Source of the DNA: a phage | Length of the DNA: 64,000 nt | Reading direction: 5' to 3' (one strand) | Assembly (NCBI GenBank): GCA_012338575.1 | Contig: GCA_012338575.1_3616.1 | Part shown: piece by piece, positions 28,351 to 58,578 of the stretch | Position numbering within the stretch: the stretch's first letter is position 1 | How the letters are laid out: every line of letters begins with the position of its first letter | The notes under the pieces: generated by a model | Databases searched by the model: none | Told to the model about the DNA's origin: nothing | What the model saw: the letters and a program-made list of their open reading frames with translations, nothing else | Program-made: the position numbers and the translations under genes

Positions 28351-29283
28351 TCATTTACCACAAATCTTCTTGTATACCTCTTCTACCGTGTCAAACACTT
28401 CAGGCCTGTAGTAGAAAAACTCAGTGCTACCGTCAAATTTTACAGGAAAGTTTATTTTATACTTGCTGAAGGCCTTATGCACAGATTTTTCTAAATCTAC
28501 CATGTTTTGAGTTGATCCGCTCCACGTTTTTACTACGTGAAGAGTGTGGACACCTGCGCCAGATTTACGAGCACTGTTAAGCACCTCATTTTTCCTCCTG
28601 TGCATTTTAACGCATACACCGATTTTCATAAGTGTTGGCACTTCTAAGTCATCAACCATAATGTAGAGTTTACCGTACTCATGAGATAAGAATCCATTTT
28701 GTGCGCATTTACAGCAGCCACGACCACTTTTTAGGTTATTAGGTTTAGCAGACCACTTATACCCACAAATTTTGCACCTACATTGCACTTTTGTGTTATC
28801 ATTGGTAATTTTCTCTAATATTTCTATGTCTGGGTTGGCTTTGTGGATAATTGCAGCATGCTCCTTATGGGTTAACGCTTGACTTTGCCCACGTCTTAAG
28901 TCATAGCACTCTGGGCAGCCGTTTCTTTGGTATAAGTGGTTTTCAGGGTATTGTTCAAACACACCGTGTTCAGGGCAAACAATTTTTACAGGCGTTCTCA
29001 TGTTCGCATATTTGACTAATGAGTAATCGTACTTGTCCCCATGAGCAGCCATAGCCTCTTTTATGAACTCTTCAGTGTTCTTTTTCGCTGACCCACCACA
29101 CCTTGGACAACCATGCTTCTTGAAAGCATGTGCCACAGGGGTTTGCCAGAACTCACCGTGCTCAGGACAAATTATACACACAGGTGTCTTGTTGTTTTTA
29201 TACTCCACTTTGAAGTAATCATATTTGTCACCATGTATAGTCTGAGCTTTTTCTATAAACTCTTCGGTTGTTAGTCTCCTCAT
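28351..29283 (-). CDS. free-standing homing-endonuclease-like protein (GIY-YIG/T5orf172-like C-terminal domain, duplicated N-terminal zinc-ribbon repeats)
   Basis: Two tandem repeats of HGDKYDY...CPEHG.F...GCP.C; C-terminus GKLYIMVDD..LMKIGV...GSTEFFYY resembles GIY-YIG-like T5orf172 pattern (family assignment from memory). Confidence 0.5.
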   Translation of the reverse strand: MRRLTTEEFIEKAQTIHGDKYDYFKVEYKNNKTPVCIICPEHGEFWQTPVAHAFKKHGCPRCGGSAKKNTEEFIKEAMAAHGDKYDYSLVKYANMRTPVKIVCPEHGVFEQYPENHLYQRNGCPECYDLRRGQSQALTHKEHAAIIHKANPDIEILEKITNDNTKVQCRCKICGYKWSAKPNNLKSGRGCCKCAQNGFLSHEYGKLYIMVDDLEVPTLMKIGVCVKMHRRKNEVLNSARKSGAGVHTLHVVKTWSGSTQNMVDLEKSVHKAFSKYKINFPVKFDGSTEFFYYRPEVFDTVEEVYKKICGK

Positions 29284-29323
29284 TACCAGACCAGACCCTT
29301 CCGCTATTCACTTTATATTGCAT

Positions 29324-29350
29324 ACTATAGAAAAGAGGAATAGAAGTCAA
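29324..29350 (-). promoter_or_regulatory. sigma70-like promoter for the endonuclease-like gene (TTGACT, 15 bp, TATAGT)
   Basis: On minus strand TTGACT (29350-29345) and TATAGT (29329-29324). Confidence 0.4.
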
Positions 29351-29382
29351 TAAAAACAAAAAATGAGAGCATCCTTGCTCTC
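29351..29382 (-). terminator. rho-independent terminator after nrdD
   Basis: GAGAGC-aaggat-GCTCTC followed by ATTTTTTGTTTTT on minus strand. Confidence 0.65.
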
Positions 29383-29393
29383 AATCTCTTTCC

Positions 29394-30671
29394 TTATTTA
29401 CTCAACGGACACCAGTCTACATTCCCAACATGTTTAACACGTTCGATAACCTCTGCTTGTTTACCTGTGTTATACGGTCTACTGTTCGGGCTGGAGAGAT
29501 AGCCAGACACTCTTCGGATCACTGAGATATATTGTTCATCGTGGCATCCGCACGCAGGGCAGCAGAACCCTTTAGCTGTTGCACTGAACTCACCAGAGAA
29601 ACCACACTTAAGACATTTATCCACAGGTTGGTTAATACCAAAATACATAATGTGTTTATACCCGAAGTCAACAAGAGCCTCTAAAGCATCTAAGTTGTTT
29701 TTCAGATTTGGTGTCTCTACATATCCGATGTTGCCACCAGAGGAGATCATAGCAAAACCTTCCTCATACGCCCACTTATCAAAAGGAGAGCTATTGATCC
29801 ATACTGGCTGATGGAAACTGTTGGTGAGATATTCATGCTCGTGCTTCAACACTTCAGGATATTCACGATCCAGACAGGTTGCAGCTTTATAGCATAGACT
29901 CTCAGAAGGGGTGCCGTACAAGCTAAACGCTAGTCTACTTTCCTTCTTGTATCGCTCACAAGCATCTCTCATGTGCTGAAGGATTCCAAGAGCTAAAGCC
30001 TTGTCACCCTCTCTGCCCAAAATCTGACAGGTTTCATACACACCGATATACCCAATACTGATGGAAGCGTACCCGTCATAGAAGAGTTTATCAATACTCT
30101 CTTCAGGATCCAGGCGGGCAAGAGCGCCTTCACACCACATGATGGGGTTCTGCCCTGCCTTTGTTCCTTTTAGACGGTTAACCCTTACAAGGTGAGCCTC
30201 GTATGCAAGATCCAAGTATTCGTCAAGAACCGCAAAGAAATCAACACCTTCCGTCTTAGCTTTTGCCGCAATCATTGGCAGGTTAAGGCTAACAACACCC
30301 AAGTTGAATCTGCCAAGGTATTTCTCCTCACCTGTTTCCAAGTCATTGTATTTGCTAAGAAAACTCCGGCAACCCATGCTCGTTACTTTGCCATCTGTCG
30401 AGCCTGTCACTTTTCTATTTAGTGGTACAGATACGAAGTCAGGGTAGATACGTTCTGCACAGCATTCCAGAGCTAATCGTTTCAAATCATAGTTAGGATC
30501 CCCAGGGTTCATGTTGACACCCTCTTCCAGGAAGAACAGCACTTTAGGGAACACAGGTGTAATACGTTCTTCACCAAGACCCATTTTGTGGACTTTCAAG
30601 TAGTTTTTGGTAATCATTCTACCAAAGACCGAGGTATCCAGTCCTAAACTTAATGTGATAAAAGGGGTTTG
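29394..30671 (-). CDS. nrdD: anaerobic ribonucleoside-triphosphate reductase, exon 2 (glycyl-radical domain)
   Basis: Begins QTPFITLSLGLDTS (cf. recalled E. coli QTPFVTFGFGLGTS); contains GDPNYD, C-rich zinc site and RVSGYL glycyl-radical motif. Confidence 0.8.
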   Translation of the reverse strand, partial: QTPFITLSLGLDTSVFGRMITKNYLKVHKMGLGEERITPVFPKVLFFLEEGVNMNPGDPNYDLKRLALECCAERIYPDFVSVPLNRKVTGSTDGKVTSMGCRSFLSKYNDLETGEEKYLGRFNLGVVSLNLPMIAAKAKTEGVDFFAVLDEYLDLAYEAHLVRVNRLKGTKAGQNPIMWCEGALARLDPEESIDKLFYDGYASISIGYIGVYETCQILGREGDKALALGILQHMRDACERYKKESRLAFSLYGTPSESLCYKAATCLDREYPEVLKHEHEYLTNSFHQPVWINSSPFDKWAYEEGFAMISSGGNIGYVETPNLKNNLDALEALVDFGYKHIMYFGINQPVDKCLKCGFSGEFSATAKGFCCPACGCHDEQYISVIRRVSGYLSSPNSRPYNTGKQAEVIERVKHVGNVDWCPLSK

Positions 30672-51218: not shown

Positions 51219-51773
51219 ATGAAATACTTTGTAACAAGCGACACACACTTTCTCCACCAGCGGGTCATGGAGTTTGATTCATGTCAAAAACACAGATCTC
51301 AGTATGATCACAATCTTGACAGTATGAATGCGGGAATCATCGCCGAGTGGAACTCTGTTGTGTCACCTGCAGACACTGTGTTTCACTTGGGAGATATTGC
51401 GTGCACTAATGATAAGAATATCAACAAATTGCTCCCAGATGTTCTAAATATGTTGAACGGACATATTATTCTTGTTCGTGGTAACCATGACACAAGGACG
51501 ACTGTCAGAATTATGAAAGAGTTCGGTCATGATGTTGTAGATTATTACGAGCTTCGCCACAACAAGAATTTGATCTGTATGAGCCATTACCAGTTTGCAA
51601 AGTGGAACAGAAAGCCTCACGGATCAGTCCAACTGTTCGGTCATGCTCACGGAACCACACAGCAGTTGTTTGGCAGGCAGTTTGATGTCGGTTGGGATGT
51701 GTGGGGGAGACTCTTACCATTAGAAGAGGCATACCGTATTGCAATGAGTCTTGCTATTGACAGCGGGGAGTAA
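51219..51773 (+). CDS. calcineurin-like metallophosphoesterase
   Basis: ATG 51219 after GAGGAA; motifs SDTHF, HLGDI, LVRGNHD, GHAHGT. Confidence 0.6.
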   Translation: MKYFVTSDTHFLHQRVMEFDSCQKHRSQYDHNLDSMNAGIIAEWNSVVSPADTVFHLGDIACTNDKNINKLLPDVLNMLNGHIILVRGNHDTRTTVRIMKEFGHDVVDYYELRHNKNLICMSHYQFAKWNRKPHGSVQLFGHAHGTTQQLFGRQFDVGWDVWGRLLPLEEAYRIAMSLAIDSGE

Positions 51774-51820
51774 TCCCTGCTATTTTAAAGAAAATTGCCA
51801 CACAAGGAGAATCAGGAGAT

Positions 51821-52171
51821 ATGAAAGATGGGGATAAGCTGCTATATCTTAAAGTCCCCCTTGAAATACTGTCTATGTCAAAAGTTTTGAATGACACAAC
51901 TGGGGAGGCTGTTGTTCTTGACTTATATGACAAGATCGTATACTGCTACCTGCACAACTGGTATAAGCTTGGAGGAAATTCACGCTTCACACCAAGCACA
52001 AGGAAAATTGCAGCAGATGTTGGGATAAAGAAAACAAAAGCAGCAGCGTGCGTTAAAACTTTAGAATGTGCAGGAGTGGTTGAAATATCCACACAAGGGA
52101 GAGGTAAAAGATGTACATTTTCCAAAGTTTTGCCACCAGAAGAGGTTATTCGAATGTCAACAACTGGTTAG
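51821..52171 (+). CDS. putative DNA-binding protein (HTH-like)
   Basis: TRKIAADVGIKKTKAAACVKTLECAGVV helix-turn-helix-like segment; adjacent to tandem palindromic repeats. Confidence 0.4.
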   Translation: MKDGDKLLYLKVPLEILSMSKVLNDTTGEAVVLDLYDKIVYCYLHNWYKLGGNSRFTPSTRKIAADVGIKKTKAAACVKTLECAGVVEISTQGRGKRCTFSKVLPPEEVIRMSTTG

Positions 52172-52242
52172 ACCAGTAAAAACTTAAATATCTGTACTAT
52201 AAGGATTCGTATGTTTTATGTTCGCTCTGGAACAGAGGTCAG

Positions 52243-52286
52243 TAACTGTCCGTGATACGGACACTAACTGTCCGTGATACGGACAC
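52243..52286. repeat. perfect tandem duplication of 22-bp unit TAACTGTCCGTGATACGGACAC (each with palindrome GTCCGT-gat-ACGGAC)
   Basis: Two identical adjacent copies; followed by AT-rich GTAC-repeat region 52320-52410. Confidence 0.8.
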
Positions 52287-52429
52287 ATAAAGAATATAAC
52301 TAAAATAACTAAATAATAAAAAATAAAAGATCTAGTACTTATGGTACTAAGTACATATACTTAACTTATGTAGAATATACTAGATCCTAAGTACCATGTT
52401 TTAAAATTATTACTTACTATAGGTAGTGT

Positions 52430-52700
52430 CGGCCCTTCATTGGCACTCGCCTACGAGGGGCGAGATGCCGGGCCTCCTTGGTGCACACAATAACAGAAGT
52501 GCATACATGCAGGTCTGTTAACATGTGTGGGAGCGAAGCGATAGCGCAGGCCAAAGGCCGAGCACTGATGTGGACCACCGACGAAAGCTTGCCAGCTCCG
52601 TAAGGAGTCGGTTGAGAGTCTCCCGCGCGAGCTTGGATGAAGTTTATGTGTGGAAACTGACAAGAAGGCCCCTAAATCGCTCCACAGCTATATGAACTAT
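52430..52700. other. GC-rich hairpin-dense non-coding region (candidate structured RNA)
   Basis: No plausible ORF; long hairpin GGCCC..GGCA-CTCGCC-tacgagg-GGCGAG-a-TGCC-GGGCC and several palindromes in otherwise AT-rich DNA. Confidence 0.35.
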
Positions 52701-52789
52701 ACCAGGTAATGCAATCGCACCAGTTTGATAGAAAAGCTCGTTACAAAGTGATACAGTGAGTTTTTCTATAACTTGAAGAGGAGGCAGCT

Positions 52790-53368
52790 ATGGGTTCACG
52801 CAAAGATGACCGTGAAAAGATTGCAAAACGTTATCAGAATGAAGAACAGATGGAGAAAACTTTCAAGTGGAAGCCTGGTTTCCAGCGTAATCATTCTAAC
52901 GCTCGTGATCGTAAGCATCCGGATAAGTGGCTAACACCGCCAAATGATGGCATGCAGGTTGGTGATGAGAAGGAGATGTCACCTGGAAAAGATGGCAACT
53001 ACATTCGCACTAAGGAAGCTGGTCCAAAGGATGACAGCTATCTTGTAGATAAGGTTCTTAATGGTATTGATGTAGATGTTGACACTGCACGAAACCTTTT
53101 TCTTGGTTGGTATCGTACAGGGTTTTTCGACATCAAGGCTATTCGTCGTGTTTGCGATATTAAAAAGTCTGCCTATGATGATGACTCCCTACATCGCACT
53201 CTGAGACAATACTCAGAGAGATACGGTCATCCAGTTATCACTCTTGACGATATTAACGAAGTGATGTATCATGCAGAGGTTGTTGCAGGTAGATTCGGTG
53301 ATGCATATCTAGATATCCTTTCTGCAAAGGATGAGGTAATGTTAAATAAGATTTACTATGAACGCTGA
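52790..53368 (+). CDS. hypothetical protein (192 aa)
   Basis: Strong SD GAAGAGGAGG. Confidence 0.6.
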   Translation: MGSRKDDREKIAKRYQNEEQMEKTFKWKPGFQRNHSNARDRKHPDKWLTPPNDGMQVGDEKEMSPGKDGNYIRTKEAGPKDDSYLVDKVLNGIDVDVDTARNLFLGWYRTGFFDIKAIRRVCDIKKSAYDDDSLHRTLRQYSERYGHPVITLDDINEVMYHAEVVAGRFGDAYLDILSAKDEVMLNKIYYER

Positions 53369-53886: not shown

Positions 53887-54176
53887 GGTTGTTTTCGTGT
53901 ATCATGATGAATATCCAATTTAAAGATGAATTTGATGGCTTTATCTCCGGATGCTTTGAAACAGGGTTCGGAGAAGACTGAGTTCCCTTAGAGGGCTTGA
54001 TAGTGCACCACACTTAAAATGGTAGGGGCAGCCAGCACATGACGATGTGACCCCAGCCAACCTGTAATAAGGTCGAGCCTGAGCGCGGTAATGGGTATAG
54101 CTGGAAAACCCACTTGTTGGGTCTTGCTGGTCCAGGACGCTGGACAAGTCGCAGGGAATACCACCCTGCGGCGAAC

Positions 54177-54205
54177 TTGACAATCAGTATTTGCTATGAT
54201 AAAAT
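54177..54205 (+). promoter_or_regulatory. sigma70-like promoter (TTGACA, 17 bp, TAAAAT)
   Basis: TTGACA 54177-54182, TAAAAT 54200-54205. Confidence 0.5.
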
Positions 54206-54873: not shown

Positions 54874-54961
54874 GGTGAGTTAATTCCGTAGGGGTAGCGG
54901 GGCAGACTGTAAATCTGTTATCATTGCGATTCGGGTGGTTCGACTCCATCACTCACCACCA
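54874..54961 (+). tRNA. tRNA-Tyr (anticodon GTA), long variable arm
   Basis: Acceptor GGTGAGT/ACTCACC, anticodon loop CTGTAAA, T-loop GGTTCGACTCC, CCA encoded; 85 nt plus CCA. Confidence 0.8.
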
Positions 54962-55264: not shown

Positions 55265-55361
55265 GCTAGGTAAGCCCTTTGGCAAGGGCGAGGATTTTTA
55301 ATCCTGAAAATAGACGAGGTAGTCGTTGAATACATAGGTGGTTCGATTCCATCACCTAGCA
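55265..55361 (+). other. aberrant tRNA-like element (canonical acceptor, D- and T-arms; anticodon region replaced/expanded)
   Basis: Acceptor GCTAGGT/ACCTAGC, D-arm GCCC-TTTGGCAA-GGGC, T-arm GGTGG-TTCGATT-CCATC, but middle is AGGATT-TTT-AATCCT hairpin plus about 30 extra nt; no encoded CCA. Confidence 0.4.
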
Positions 55362-55368
55362 CCTTTTT

Positions 55369-56428: not shown

Positions 56429-56712
56429 GAGTTGCTACACTGTTTATTGCGTGCTTGTTATTATGTGGGTGTGCAACCAGTGTTGAGAAAGAATACAAGA
56501 TTGACCCTCCAGATGTAGGAAGGTTGATTGTTAAACCCCCGGAAGGTGCCATGAAACCACCTGCTAAAGCTATACCTTTAAAGAAAGGTGCGCCAGATGC
56601 GGTGAATTCTGGCATTATGAGGGATAATAATCTGTCTTGTAGCAATGATAGAGCTAAATTGATCATTTTGCAAGACTATATTAGAACACTGTTTCCAAAG
56701 GAGAGAGGTTAA
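56425..56712 (+). CDS. o-spanin (Rz1-like outer-membrane lipoprotein)
   Basis: Signal peptide MRVATLFIACLLLCGC with lipobox Cys; Pro-rich mature part; ATGA overlap with i-spanin. Confidence 0.55.
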   Translation: MRVATLFIACLLLCGCATSVEKEYKIDPPDVGRLIVKPPEGAMKPPAKAIPLKKGAPDAVNSGIMRDNNLSCSNDRAKLIILQDYIRTLFPKERG

Positions 56713-57137
56713 TGTCTAAGATTTACGGACCGTGTTCTGAAAAGCAGAAGATGATCCTCGAAAACGATGCAGATATTTTGGTAATCGGCGGTGCCGCAGG
56801 GTCTGGCAAGTCGTTCCTTTTGCAGTTGATGCCGCTTAAAATTATTGATGACCCCCACAGCTCTGTGGTTATGTTCCGAAGAACAACTCCACAGTTGGAG
56901 GGTGAGGGTGGACTATGGCCTAAAGCAGTAGCTATTTATAGTGATCTGCCTGAAAACATTAAGCCAAAGTTCAGAGAGAAGGATCATAAGTTCATTTTTC
57001 CACGGTTTGATCCTAACACTGGTAAGTGGGATAGAAGCAAAAAGGGAGCTGTTGTAAAATACTGCCACATGGAGTATGTACAAGATAAGCTTAACCATCA
57101 AGGGCTTGAGTACACCATGGTTTGCTTCGATGAGGGT
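56712..57137 (+). CDS. terminase large subunit, exon 1 (ATPase Walker A/B)
   Basis: Walker A GGAAGSGKS, Walker B MVCFDEG; reading frame hits stop at 57138-57140 inside intron. Confidence 0.75.
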
Positions 57138-57456
57138 TAATTTGTAGCTCTCGTAAAACCTCCCTAATTGCGGGGAAATCTTTATTATTGACACCACCAA
57201 CCTGTTATGGTAACATGATAGAGGCTTCGAAGAGAGATCGAAGGTATGGTAACAGTGTGTTAATTTAGATAATCCGCAGCGAAGCATCCGAGGGGATGAA
57301 CGTTCAACGACTAGTCGAAAGACGTAGAATCAAGCGATTCGAAACGGGAGGGTAAGCGGTTGTTGTCGCTTATAAGATATAGTCTGGTCTGCATGGAGAC
57401 ATGCAGCTGCCTGAAAATGGCGGGGCAAGACTAGCGACCTTGCCCGAACATAAACG
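57138..57456 (+). mobile_element. group I intron (ORF-less, td-like) interrupting terminase large subunit gene
   Basis: 319 nt without ORF; begins TAATTTG after exon T, ends ...GAACATAAACG; contains AGTCTGGTCTGCATGGAGACATGCAGCTG, AACGACTA, CGAAACG strings recalled from T4 td intron; splicing 57137/57457 is in frame. Confidence 0.75.
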
Positions 57457-58578
57457 ACACAATTCGAATGGGAGCAGATAGACTACCTGATGTCTCGTCT
57501 GCGATCTCAGTCAAAGTATCCATCAAGGATGGTTATCAGCTGTAACCCCGATTCAGAACACATGCTTGCCAAACTGGTTAGATGGTGGTTGGACGATGAA
57601 GGGTATCCAGATCCGGAGAAATGCGGTAAGAAAAGATATTTTATCCGACGCGACGGTGAATTTATTTGGGGAGACTCTAAGGAAGAGTTGATAGAGAAAT
57701 ACACCACGGTTAACGGACTGGGTGTAGAGATCAAGCCAAGACCGTTGTCATTCTCGTTCATAGGCGCAACAATATTCGATAATCCTGTCTGTTTGAGAGA
57801 CAACCCAGAATACCTTGCTTTCCTTGAAGGCCTGCCAGAACTTGAAAAAGCCCAGCTTCTTCATGGCAACTGGTTTGCAAAGCCTGAGGGTGCAAACTAT
57901 TTTCAAAGATCTTTCCTTCGTGATGCCGATAGAGTACCCCTTGGATCAGTATCTTGCAGGGCATGGGATAAGGCAGGAACCGAGAGAACTTCCGGTAATA
58001 AATTTCCTGACTTTACCGCCAGTGTTAAGGTAAGTAAAGATAGCGACGGCTTTTATTACCTGTCCGGTGATTATTGTCCTGAGAACGTGGATGACGGGAG
58101 GTATTCCACAGGTCTGGAAGGTAAGTTCTGTAAAAAGGCTGGTGAACGAGATGTGATCATCAGGAAACAGGCGCAGTTTGATGGTGATGATTGTATAATC
58201 GTATTCTCTGTGGACCCCGGTCAGGCAGGTAAGAGTGAGTTCTTAACATCCTCCAGATCCTTGCTTGCCGAAGGGTTTAGGGTTGAAGAAGACCCAATGC
58301 CTTCCAACAAATCTAAACTGACAAGGTTCTCACCTTTTGCCAATCTTGCCCAACAAGGAATGGTTAGGATTGTAAAATCCAGTTTCCATCCTGATACTCT
58401 GGAAGCATTTCTGACTGAACTTGAAAAATTCAACGGGGAAAGATCAACATTTAACAGGAAAGACGACTGGGCCGACTGTGTAGCTTCTGCGATTAATTTC
58501 CTGGAGAAAGAGGAGGTAGCACTTCCTTGTGTGATTCCATCAATCTCATCACCTTCTATGTTCAAGCGTTTTATCTAA
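57457..58578 (+). CDS. terminase large subunit, exon 2 (nuclease domain)
   Basis: Frame open from 57457 (TQFEWEQIDYLMSRL...); 373 aa C-terminal part; followed by terminator. Confidence 0.7.
   Translation, partial: TQFEWEQIDYLMSRLRSQSKYPSRMVISCNPDSEHMLAKLVRWWLDDEGYPDPEKCGKKRYFIRRDGEFIWGDSKEELIEKYTTVNGLGVEIKPRPLSFSFIGATIFDNPVCLRDNPEYLAFLEGLPELEKAQLLHGNWFAKPEGANYFQRSFLRDADRVPLGSVSCRAWDKAGTERTSGNKFPDFTASVKVSKDSDGFYYLSGDYCPENVDDGRYSTGLEGKFCKKAGERDVIIRKQAQFDGDDCIIVFSVDPGQAGKSEFLTSSRSLLAEGFRVEEDPMPSNKSKLTRFSPFANLAQQGMVRIVKSSFHPDTLEAFLTELEKFNGERSTFNRKDDWADCVASAINFLEKEEVALPCVIPSISSPSMFKRFI

Follow-up and report, generated by a model that had tools for sequence, protein, structure and literature searches.

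A conserved iteron-like array beside a winged-helix gene is a candidate replication origin in rV5-like phages

The DNA analysed here, referred to as the window, is a stretch of 64,000 nucleotides from a phage (NCBI GenBank assembly GCA_012338575.1, contig GCA_012338575.1_3616.1). The 1.2 kb around the repeat array described below match 119 phage records at 86–98% identity, all of them rV5-like E. coli myoviruses of the genus Vequintavirus, including navn, FFH2, V18, and rV5 itself. Records labelled Campylobacter phage are among these matches and are also classed as Vequintavirus. The + strand carries, in order, genes for a P-loop kinase-like ATPase, a metallophosphoesterase, and a 116-aa protein, followed by a gene-free stretch of 618 nt (52172–52789). 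Further downstream are the gene of a 192-aa protein with no assigned function, small ORFs, a tRNA cluster, lysis genes, and the terminase large subunit gene. Both genes flanking the module are restricted to the genus Vequintavirus. A sigma-70-like promoter is predicted ahead of the 116-aa gene, and the homologous site is annotated in the rV5 RefSeq record as promoter P76. The features of the locus are listed in Table 1.

Table 1. Features at and around the repeat array (positions in the window)
Feature	Position	Strand	Basis
Predicted sigma-70-like promoter, TTGACA-18-TATTTT with upstream TG, preceding the winged-helix gene	51757–51786	+	Consensus scan
116-aa winged helix-turn-helix protein, putative origin-binding initiator	51821–52171	+	Pfam, PHROGs, AlphaFold
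Hypervariable 22-nt block directly upstream of the array	52221–52242		pi 0.285 in bin 52221–52245
Two 22-bp iteron-like units, each with palindrome TGTCCGT-GAT-ACGGACA	52243–52286		Repeat detection
Putative DNA-unwinding element with ATAACTAAA short repeats and an A-rich tract	52287–52331		GC minimum; repeat detection; pi
Conserved AT-rich block with two GATC, four GTAC motifs, and ACTTAACTTATG (52359–52370)	52328–52416		Sequence, GTAC statistics, pi
Second variable spot, right-hand edge of the conserved module	52417–52425		Alignment blocks
GC-rich non-coding block, ~57% GC at its core, possibly a structured RNA	52426–52700	+	Codon periodicity, folding

The array starts 72 bp past the stop codon of the 116-aa gene. 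An earlier note on this DNA had claimed a perfect tandem 22-bp repeat at this place, and TAACTGTCCGTGATACGGACAC indeed occurs twice without a mismatch, as found by Tandem Repeats Finder (period 22, 2.0 copies, 100% matches, and a score of 88, the highest in the window) and by a second repeat search. The palindrome claimed for each unit is also present, with 7-bp arms, at 52247–52263 and 52269–52285. When up to two mismatches are allowed, TGTCCG-N5-CGGACA has five matches in the window and is exact only in the two array units. Neither the remainder of the window nor that of the FFH2 genome contains another TGYCCG-N5-CGGACA with up to one mismatch. Some relatives' records already carry a plain repeat_region annotation at the array.

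The 45 bp that follow the units (8.9% GC) are the most AT-rich within the 64-kb window, and its 100-bp GC minimum (19% GC) also begins at 52287. Tandem Repeats Finder reports a period of 8 with 3.1 copies at 52296–52321. The AT-rich stretch had been described as carrying AGTACT, GGTACT, AGTACA, and AGTACC, and all of these are present, with GTAC at 52335, 52344, 52351, and 52391. GTAC is scarce in the window overall (1.8 per kb), and the four copies in 60 bp (52335–52394) form the densest cluster in the 64 kb, against a Poisson expectation of ~0.009 such windows. The motifs of the AT-rich block do not recur elsewhere in the window, including its other intergenic regions. The GTAC-rich segment is a set of motifs and no hairpin; a hairpin or cruciform reading was rejected since the folding is no better than that of shuffled sequence (z ~-1.2). 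A long-range inverted repeat pairing 52181–52198 with 52350–52367 loses its complementarity in the most divergent relative and was taken as chance. The two GATC sites of the module (52329–52332 and 52383–52386) are not enriched against the window average of 5.8 per kb. Neither the DnaA box (TTWTNCACA) nor the IHF consensus (WATCAANNNNTTR) has a match in the module. Four DnaA-box matches clustered at 28475–29625 lie inside coding sequence and were set aside.

The intergenic region of the window was compared with that of 17 relatives, that is, in 18 Vequintavirus genomes. The array consists of two units in the window and in navn, three in five phages, four in ten, and six in one. The units are spaced by 21/21/22 bp, which corresponds to two helical turns, and follow the consensus CTG(T/C)CCG-N5-CGGACAC. 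The usual four-unit array is composed of A (TGTCCGTGATACGGACA), B (TGTCCGTCACGCGGACA), C (TGCCCGTAATACGGACA), and D, which equals A. Different phages keep different subsets of these units, so units appear to have been lost and gained repeatedly, a pattern that indicates repeated unequal exchange.

Sequence diversity was measured as pi in 25-nt bins, with the third codon positions of the two flanking genes as a yardstick. Over the repeats and the AT-rich block (52246–52395), pi is 0.004–0.022, compared with 0.075–0.08 at the third codon positions; it is 0.005–0.019 for the units and about 0.01 for the 45-bp tract. At the right-hand edge it reaches 0.053 (bin 52396–52420) and 0.060 (bin 52421–52445). 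Because of this low pi and the hypervariable flanks, the repeats and the AT-rich block are best seen as a single, sharply bounded unit on which purifying selection is strong. Reading ACTATAGG (52417–52424) as a T7-like promoter was discarded, as these positions are among the most variable spots of the alignment.

A scan of the gene-free stretch on either strand found no sigma-70-like promoter and no intrinsic terminator, and the tables of promoters, putative late promoters, and terminators in the rV5 paper have no entry in the homologous interval. The units do not have the form of terminators, as they are followed by TAAC or ATAAAG and not by a U-tract. Rfam searches of 52100–52850 at gathering and permissive thresholds returned only noise, the best match being rli43 with 21 bits against a 100-bit threshold.

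These observations bear on a purely regulatory reading of the array, in which the 116-aa protein would be a transcription factor whose sites affect nothing but transcription and have no role in replication. The sites might block read-through from the early promoter to genes further downstream, or control a hidden phage-specific promoter in the AT-rich block. Dyad-symmetric sites beside a small winged-helix gene are a typical repressor-operator pair, and most GenBank records name the 116-aa protein 'putative transcriptional regulator'. However, the window phage has no sigma-70-like promoter between the gene and the array or within 450 bp downstream of the array, and the AT-rich block, unlike a promoter class, has no motif in common with the window's other intergenic regions. 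Moreover, there is one site per genome in the window and FFH2, the number of units drifts between two and six, and the AT-rich block is as conserved as the repeats and is the AT extreme of the window, neither of which a simple roadblock needs.

The claim that a helix-turn-helix protein is encoded upstream holds, and the protein is of the winged type. Its match to Pfam HTH_36 (E 2.3e-5) falls just below the cut-off, with 24.5 bits against 25, and that to DUF6945 is also below, with 24 bits against 28; Phage_rep_O has no match in it. Among the PHROGs, the protein belongs to phrog_12838, 'replication initiation protein', and has weaker matches to the N-terminal 70–80 residues of the much longer initiator families phrog_8102, 428, and 270. 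AlphaFold predicts one winged-helix domain and, after it, a short C-terminal helix. The mean pLDDT of this model, which is described as confident, is 81 after the addition of distant HTH_36/DUF6945 homologues and 59 with five near-identical sequences. An N-terminal extension is present that is typical of DnaD-NTD and RepA_N. As modelled, the protein is a single-domain winged helix of the HTH_36/DnaD-N/RepA_N class, as used by origin-binding proteins, and a second domain recruiting a helicase or helicase loader is absent from the model. The fold alone cannot tell an initiator from a regulator.

The 116-aa family is almost confined to Vequintavirus, with five clusters in a search of 5.8 billion sequences. 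Among 1.84 billion representatives, 14 matches were obtained at E up to 1e-3, and the distant ones are HTH_36/DUF6945 proteins. A protein scan of the IMG/VR viral contigs found no relative. The iteron pattern has two matches in IMG/VR, and the one that was examined falls within unrelated, coding-like DNA.

Small terminases often bind repeated sites via an N-terminal helix-turn-helix, and the pac site of P1 is GATC-rich. In line with both, the module might be the pac site at which headful packaging begins, with the winged-helix protein acting like a small terminase subunit or an accessory factor that marks the first cut. The phages in question have circularly permuted genomes and use headful packaging (PMC8407724, PMC13211470). 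Neither a small terminase subunit nor a pac site is annotated in the records examined, the site is single in the window and FFH2, and it lies 4.4 kb upstream of the terminase large subunit gene on the same strand. On the other hand, the winged-helix gene follows a sigma-70 promoter and has early and RNA-repair genes as neighbours, and the tRNA and lysis genes separate it from the terminase. The model has a single winged helix and no oligomerisation domain, and the sequence relatives of the protein are the N-terminal domains of replication initiators and not terminases. In the other genera discussed below, the module is placed in a divergent early-promoter region beside NAD-salvage genes. A packaging role is therefore considered very unlikely.

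The units could also act at the RNA level. In this reading, they would fold into hairpins in the 3' UTR of the winged-helix transcript that increase its stability, define a processing site, or serve as a protein-binding site, possibly in concert with the GC-rich structured segment further downstream. A 7-bp hairpin is possible in each unit (-6.4 kcal/mol and z = -5.2 when folded as single-stranded DNA), and the array is probably transcribed because no terminator lies between it and the gene. The + strand of the GC-rich block also folds better than shuffled sequence, with z = -3.3. In contrast, the recurrent T-to-C change in the left arm (TGCCCGT vs ACGGACA) is uncompensated and places a C-A mismatch in the middle of the stem, and none of the units is followed by a U-tract. 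Strict 21–22-bp phasing and the equal conservation of the AT-rich tract are characteristic of duplex DNA sites, and the homologous arrays of the other genera lie upstream of the TTGACA hexamer of the gene, so they would not be transcribed from that promoter. With these points taken together, RNA hairpins are regarded as a highly improbable explanation.

Within the GC-rich block, a consensus helix at ~52631–52707 keeps 11 of its 18 pairs, via one-sided G-U-compatible changes, and a covariation analysis of 52416–52740 found no compensatory double changes and no excess over shuffles. Coding potential was rejected, as substitutions are even over the three codon positions and codon periodicity is absent. 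Small ORFs are annotated in this block in rV5 and some other records. It is uncertain whether the block is part of the module. Under the reading of a shared origin discussed below, its apparently structured transcript and the hypervariable block might be functional parts, for instance as a primer or a regulatory RNA.

Related phages were represented by Mydovirus, Avunavirus, Henunavirus, two Certrevirus, two genus-unassigned Vequintavirinae, and one member of Stephanstirmvirinae. All eight encode a winged-helix protein of phrog_8453 (107–128 aa), a family carried by 74 phage records, and in all eight its gene is the first one beyond a long divergent intergenic region. In NDO71, this protein (orf090) has a weak HTH_36 match and matches the same initiator and DnaD-like PHROGs as the 116-aa protein. 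The direct similarity of the 116-aa family to phrog_8453 appears marginal, as hhalign gives a probability of 63% (E 6.8e-5) when the broad profile is used and 7% (E 0.0047) with the narrow profile. Another candidate, the 118-aa orf096 of the Klebsiella phage NDO71, follows the phosphoesterase gene and is no homologue.

An iteron-like palindrome lies beside the phrog_8453 gene in six of the eight phages. It is tandem in four of these, NDO71, Av-05, FBKp34, and Hena1, in which the units adjoin the 5' end of the winged-helix gene. NDO71 has TATTCC-CGATTA-GGAATA (TCTAATTATTCC-CGATTA-GGAATA) in two copies and a degenerate one at 24-bp spacing, and Av-05 has two copies of TGTCCCC-N5-GGGGACA at 25-bp spacing. 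The Klebsiella phage FBKp34 has two copies of CCTAATTGTCCCTAAAAAGAGACA, and Hena1 has TATTCCC-N4-GGGTATA (CCTAATTATTCCC-N4-GGGTATA) in two copies and a degenerate one. In these four phages, CAATACTAACTTAT...ACTAAC comes directly after the units and is followed by an A-rich or AT-rich tract (in NDO71, AAAAACAATAAAACA) and GATC sites. LTH01 has a single TATGCC-CGTTTA-GGCATA and then an A-rich tract and six GATC sites; its short repeat differs. Certrevirus CR3 and phiTE have no clear tandem palindrome, but keep the A-rich tract and the GATC cluster, with six sites in CR3 as in LTH01. No iteron-like palindrome was found in ABPH49.

The order in the window equals that in the four phages with tandem units: the units, ATAACTAAAATAACTAAAT, and AATAAAAAATAAAAGATCT. 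The 45-bp AT-rich tract aligns with the ACTAAC repeats and the AAAAACAATAAAACA tract of the other genera, and ACTAACTTATGATC-type motifs occur in the corresponding module of NDO71, Av-05, FBKp34, and Hena1. The units themselves are related and not identical in sequence, as seen from CTAACTGTCCG..GGACAC in the window, CTAATTGTCCC..GAGACA in FBKp34, and TGTCCCC..GGGGACA in Av-05. The architecture is thus kept while the sequence of the sites changes with the adjacent protein, as a cognate protein-site pair predicts. No experimental study of these modules was found in the literature searched.

The modules of the other genera differ from that of the window in their relation to promoters. In those genera, the winged-helix gene points away from the array, back-to-back divergent sigma-70 promoters enclose the entire module, which is next to NAD-salvage genes, and a TTGACA hexamer aimed at the winged-helix gene abuts the units. 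The gene of the window points towards the array, and no sigma-70-like promoter was detected nearby. The hexamer sits at the position matching the hypervariable block upstream of the array, which may be the decayed remnant of such an iteron-abutting promoter. Iteron plasmids have an inverted-repeat version of their site at the rep promoter for autorepression of rep, an arrangement resembled by that of the other Vequintavirinae genera. By this analogy, the units in the other genera could also, or only, autoregulate the winged-helix gene. Since the TTGACA hexamer abuts the array there, the ancestral role of the units could have been autoregulation alone. The window phage has no detectable promoter there, yet its units and AT-rich block remain more conserved than coding sequence, and the conserved function therefore seems independent of a promoter. 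On balance, an array with a purely regulatory function is held to be unlikely, while deserving serious attention.

The earlier note had offered two alternatives, a cognate operator or an origin-like module. The operator is plausible for the other genera with their array-abutting TTGACA hexamer, but it is weak in the window phage, which has no sigma-70-like promoter near the array. The origin-like module fits better, given the same lack of a nearby promoter, the AT extreme adjoining the array, and a number of units (two to six) similar to the four to six of lambdoid phages. Tandem phased repeats are present, with two units at 22 bp in the window and two to six at 21/21/22 bp in the relatives, and the AT-rich tract is directly beside them. 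That the array and the winged-helix gene form a protein-site pair under selection is partly supported, because the array is conserved, single-site, and phased at 21–22 bp, and because six of the eight related phages have a comparable pairing. From these sequence features, it is judged somewhat likelier than even that 52243–52416 is the cis-acting core of a lambda-type iteron origin and that the 116-aa winged-helix protein is its cognate binding protein.

At such an origin, the 116-aa protein would be made early from its sigma-70-type promoter, and a dimer would bind to each dyad-symmetric unit. Units two helical turns apart would place the dimers on one face of the DNA, and their association may generate a wrapped complex comparable to the lambda O-some. 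The resulting strain would be relieved by opening of the adjacent 45-bp, 9%-GC tract. The phage's own replisome could then enter; according to the rV5 paper, the type phage has a gp4/DnaB-like primase-helicase and a family A polymerase. With a helicase and polymerase of its own, the phage is unlikely to depend on host DnaB loading. Binding by the protein, melting of the DNA, and initiation of replication at the module are all inferred from sequence comparison. The rV5 paper sought an origin by skew analysis and located none, and the skew switches were tied only to changes in transcription direction. One of these switches (rV5 66675–66725) is ~1.4 kb from the array.

The lambda origin contains four 19-bp imperfect inverted repeats, each of which is bound by O dimers, and Stx phages have six (PMC7466680). 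The AT-rich tract beside the iterons is the place of unwinding, and this tract together with the two nearest iterons is the minimal unit for unwinding and in vitro replication (PMC7466680). O binds as dimers via its N-terminal winged helix, and the O gene and the origin are physically linked (PMC7466680). The window is similar in its tandem dyad-symmetric sites, the directly adjoining AT-rich tract, and the linked winged-helix gene. In addition, two to six units, with a presumably viable phage carrying only two, fit the two-iteron minimum. Lambda has further palindromic motifs beyond the AT tract, and the window also has palindromic motifs past its own. In contrast, the lambda origin lies inside the O gene and the window module past the stop codon of its gene. 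The O protein has 299 aa, with a C-terminal half that binds lambda P and a C-terminal domain that recruits P and DnaB, whereas the window protein lacks such a domain. The iteron sequences of lambda are unrelated to the window units.

Iteron plasmids (pPS10, R6K gamma, F ori2, RK2, and pSC101) and P1 oriR with RepA have tandem sites of ~17–22 bp phased at ~22 bp, an adjoining AT-rich unwinding element, and a winged-helix Rep encoded alongside. The window shares the tandem sites with ~22-bp phasing, the AT-rich neighbour, and the adjacent winged-helix gene. The AT region of P1 oriR is rich in GATC and is comparable in this to the LTH01 and CR3 modules. However, plasmid Rep proteins act as monomers with two winged-helix domains on direct-repeat iterons, whereas the window has palindromic units and a one-domain protein, and the module, unlike the plasmid origins, lacks both DnaA boxes and IHF sites. 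A strictly lytic 137-kb phage is not expected to control its copy number by handcuffing.

Virulent phages also provide parallels. At T4 oriE (RepEB) and SPP1 oriL (G38P), a small early protein or a winged-helix initiator works on short repeats beside an AT-rich segment, alongside phage-encoded helicase and primase. Neither origin has a detectable sequence relation to the window module. The iterons of T4 are short direct repeats, unlike the palindromic units described here, and G38P of SPP1 is larger and works with a dedicated loader, G39P, while no loader was identified in the window phage. The phrog_8453 modules are alike in protein, with their small HTH_36-class winged-helix proteins that match the same initiator PHROGs.

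Several observations count against an origin. The 116-aa protein has no domain for recruiting a helicase or loader and has a generic fold, DnaA boxes and IHF sites are missing from the module, and the profile-profile similarity between the 116-aa family and phrog_8453 is weak. The parallel with a shared module is also reduced by CR3 and phiTE, with no clear tandem palindromes, and by ABPH49, with no palindrome. It is doubtful, though conceivable, that the module is an origin common to many lytic enterobacterial myoviruses, among them Vequintavirinae and at least one Stephanstirmvirinae phage, in which a minimal single-domain initiator of ~116–120 aa, lacking a part that recruits a helicase, would pass the opened DNA directly to a phage-encoded gp4-like primase-helicase.

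Iteron origins themselves are textbook knowledge, and the new element is a candidate origin for rV5-like phages; the literature searched reports neither an origin nor replication data for these phages or other Vequintavirinae. If the reading with such a minimal initiator is true, lambda-style origin recognition would be joined to a T7-style replisome, a combination undescribed so far, and a single-domain protein that proves sufficient as the initiator for a phage-encoded replisome could represent a new variant of the iteron origin. A defined candidate makes it possible to test how replication starts in a large lytic phage that encodes a polymerase and a primase-helicase itself, whether a single winged-helix domain is sufficient as an initiator, and whether one module operates across Vequintavirinae. 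The rV5-like phages are widely isolated and are used in the biocontrol and therapy of pathogenic E. coli. The variable number of units is a handy natural marker for strain typing, and a true origin would offer an engineering handle for phage-dependent replicons, conditional replication, and diagnostic markers.

Tandem palindromic units of 24-25 bp are also present in the Klebsiella phages NDO71 and FBKp34, the Escherichia phage Av-05, and the Erwinia phage Hena1. In all four, the units are followed by CAATACTAACTTAT repeats and then by GATC-containing AT-rich DNA, and the module adjoins the gene for a winged-helix protein of ~120 aa (phrog_8453). The module carries no annotation in the records of these phages.

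Coordinates of the features in the window and in the sequences of phages NDO71 (L023), Av-05 (L025), FBKp34 (L029), and Hena1 (L030)
Feature	Sequence	Position	Remark
22-nt variable block	window	52221-52242	directly upstream of the array
GC-rich non-coding block	window	52426-52700	directly after the AT-rich module; core ~57% GC
Terminase large subunit ORF, part 1	window	56712-57140	
Terminase large subunit ORF, part 2	window	57490-58578	
NDO71 module	L023	2445-2640	
Av-05 module	L025	899-1118	
FBKp34 module	L029	~783-832	
Hena1 module	L030	upstream of 898	

The variable block has a diversity (pi) of 0.285 among the relatives in a 25-nt bin, compared with ~0.08 at third codon positions, which puts it above near-neutral diversity, and is flanked on both sides by highly conserved stretches. 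Its position is that occupied by the promoter of the winged-helix gene in the other genera.

The GC-rich block on the other side of the array may be a structured RNA. Substitutions within it show no codon periodicity among the 17 relatives, and its + strand folds better than shuffled sequences (z = -3.3). In a predicted helix at ~52631-52707, 11 of the 18 pairs are kept through one-sided, G-U-compatible changes, and compensatory double changes in this helix are absent among the relatives. An 18-nt deletion common to rV5, A147, and Murica removes half of a hairpin at 52484-52527. A search of the Rfam families with the block gave no match. A second GC-rich stretch, at ~53950-54200, has a GC content of 50-55% against ~40% for the genome, contains no convincing ORF, and is bordered by small ORFs on one side and the tRNA cluster on the other; it could be another non-coding RNA.

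The relatives annotate a tRNA-Tyr and a 'tRNA-OTHER' in the tRNA cluster. ARAGORN reports an odd tRNA of 99 nt with a four-base anticodon at 55265-55363, and Rfam gives a weak tRNA match (39 bits) at 54874-54958 that is absent from the ARAGORN calls. Further along, the terminase large subunit gene is split by a group I intron at 57137-57456. The Intron_gpI family of Rfam matches 57128-57406 with 83.6 bits, and relative to the uninterrupted FFH2 gene the window carries 320 additional nt, with coding nt 425 and 427 on either side of the insertion.

Of the window's 11 matches to the DnaA box (TTWTNCACA), four lie within 1.15 kb at 28475-29625, two of them being perfect TTATCCACA. All four are within coding sequences or in the gaps between them, close to the genes for the anaerobic ribonucleotide reductase; the cluster is probably due to chance.

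Three distant homologues of the window's 116-aa winged-helix protein from the HTH_36/DUF6945 class (P0010, P0016, and P0017; ~150-220 aa) have acidic tails ending in APF or PPF, which resemble the tip of the C-terminus in single-stranded DNA-binding (SSB) proteins. These SSB-like tails hint at a connection between the wider HTH_36/DUF6945 family and the replisome.
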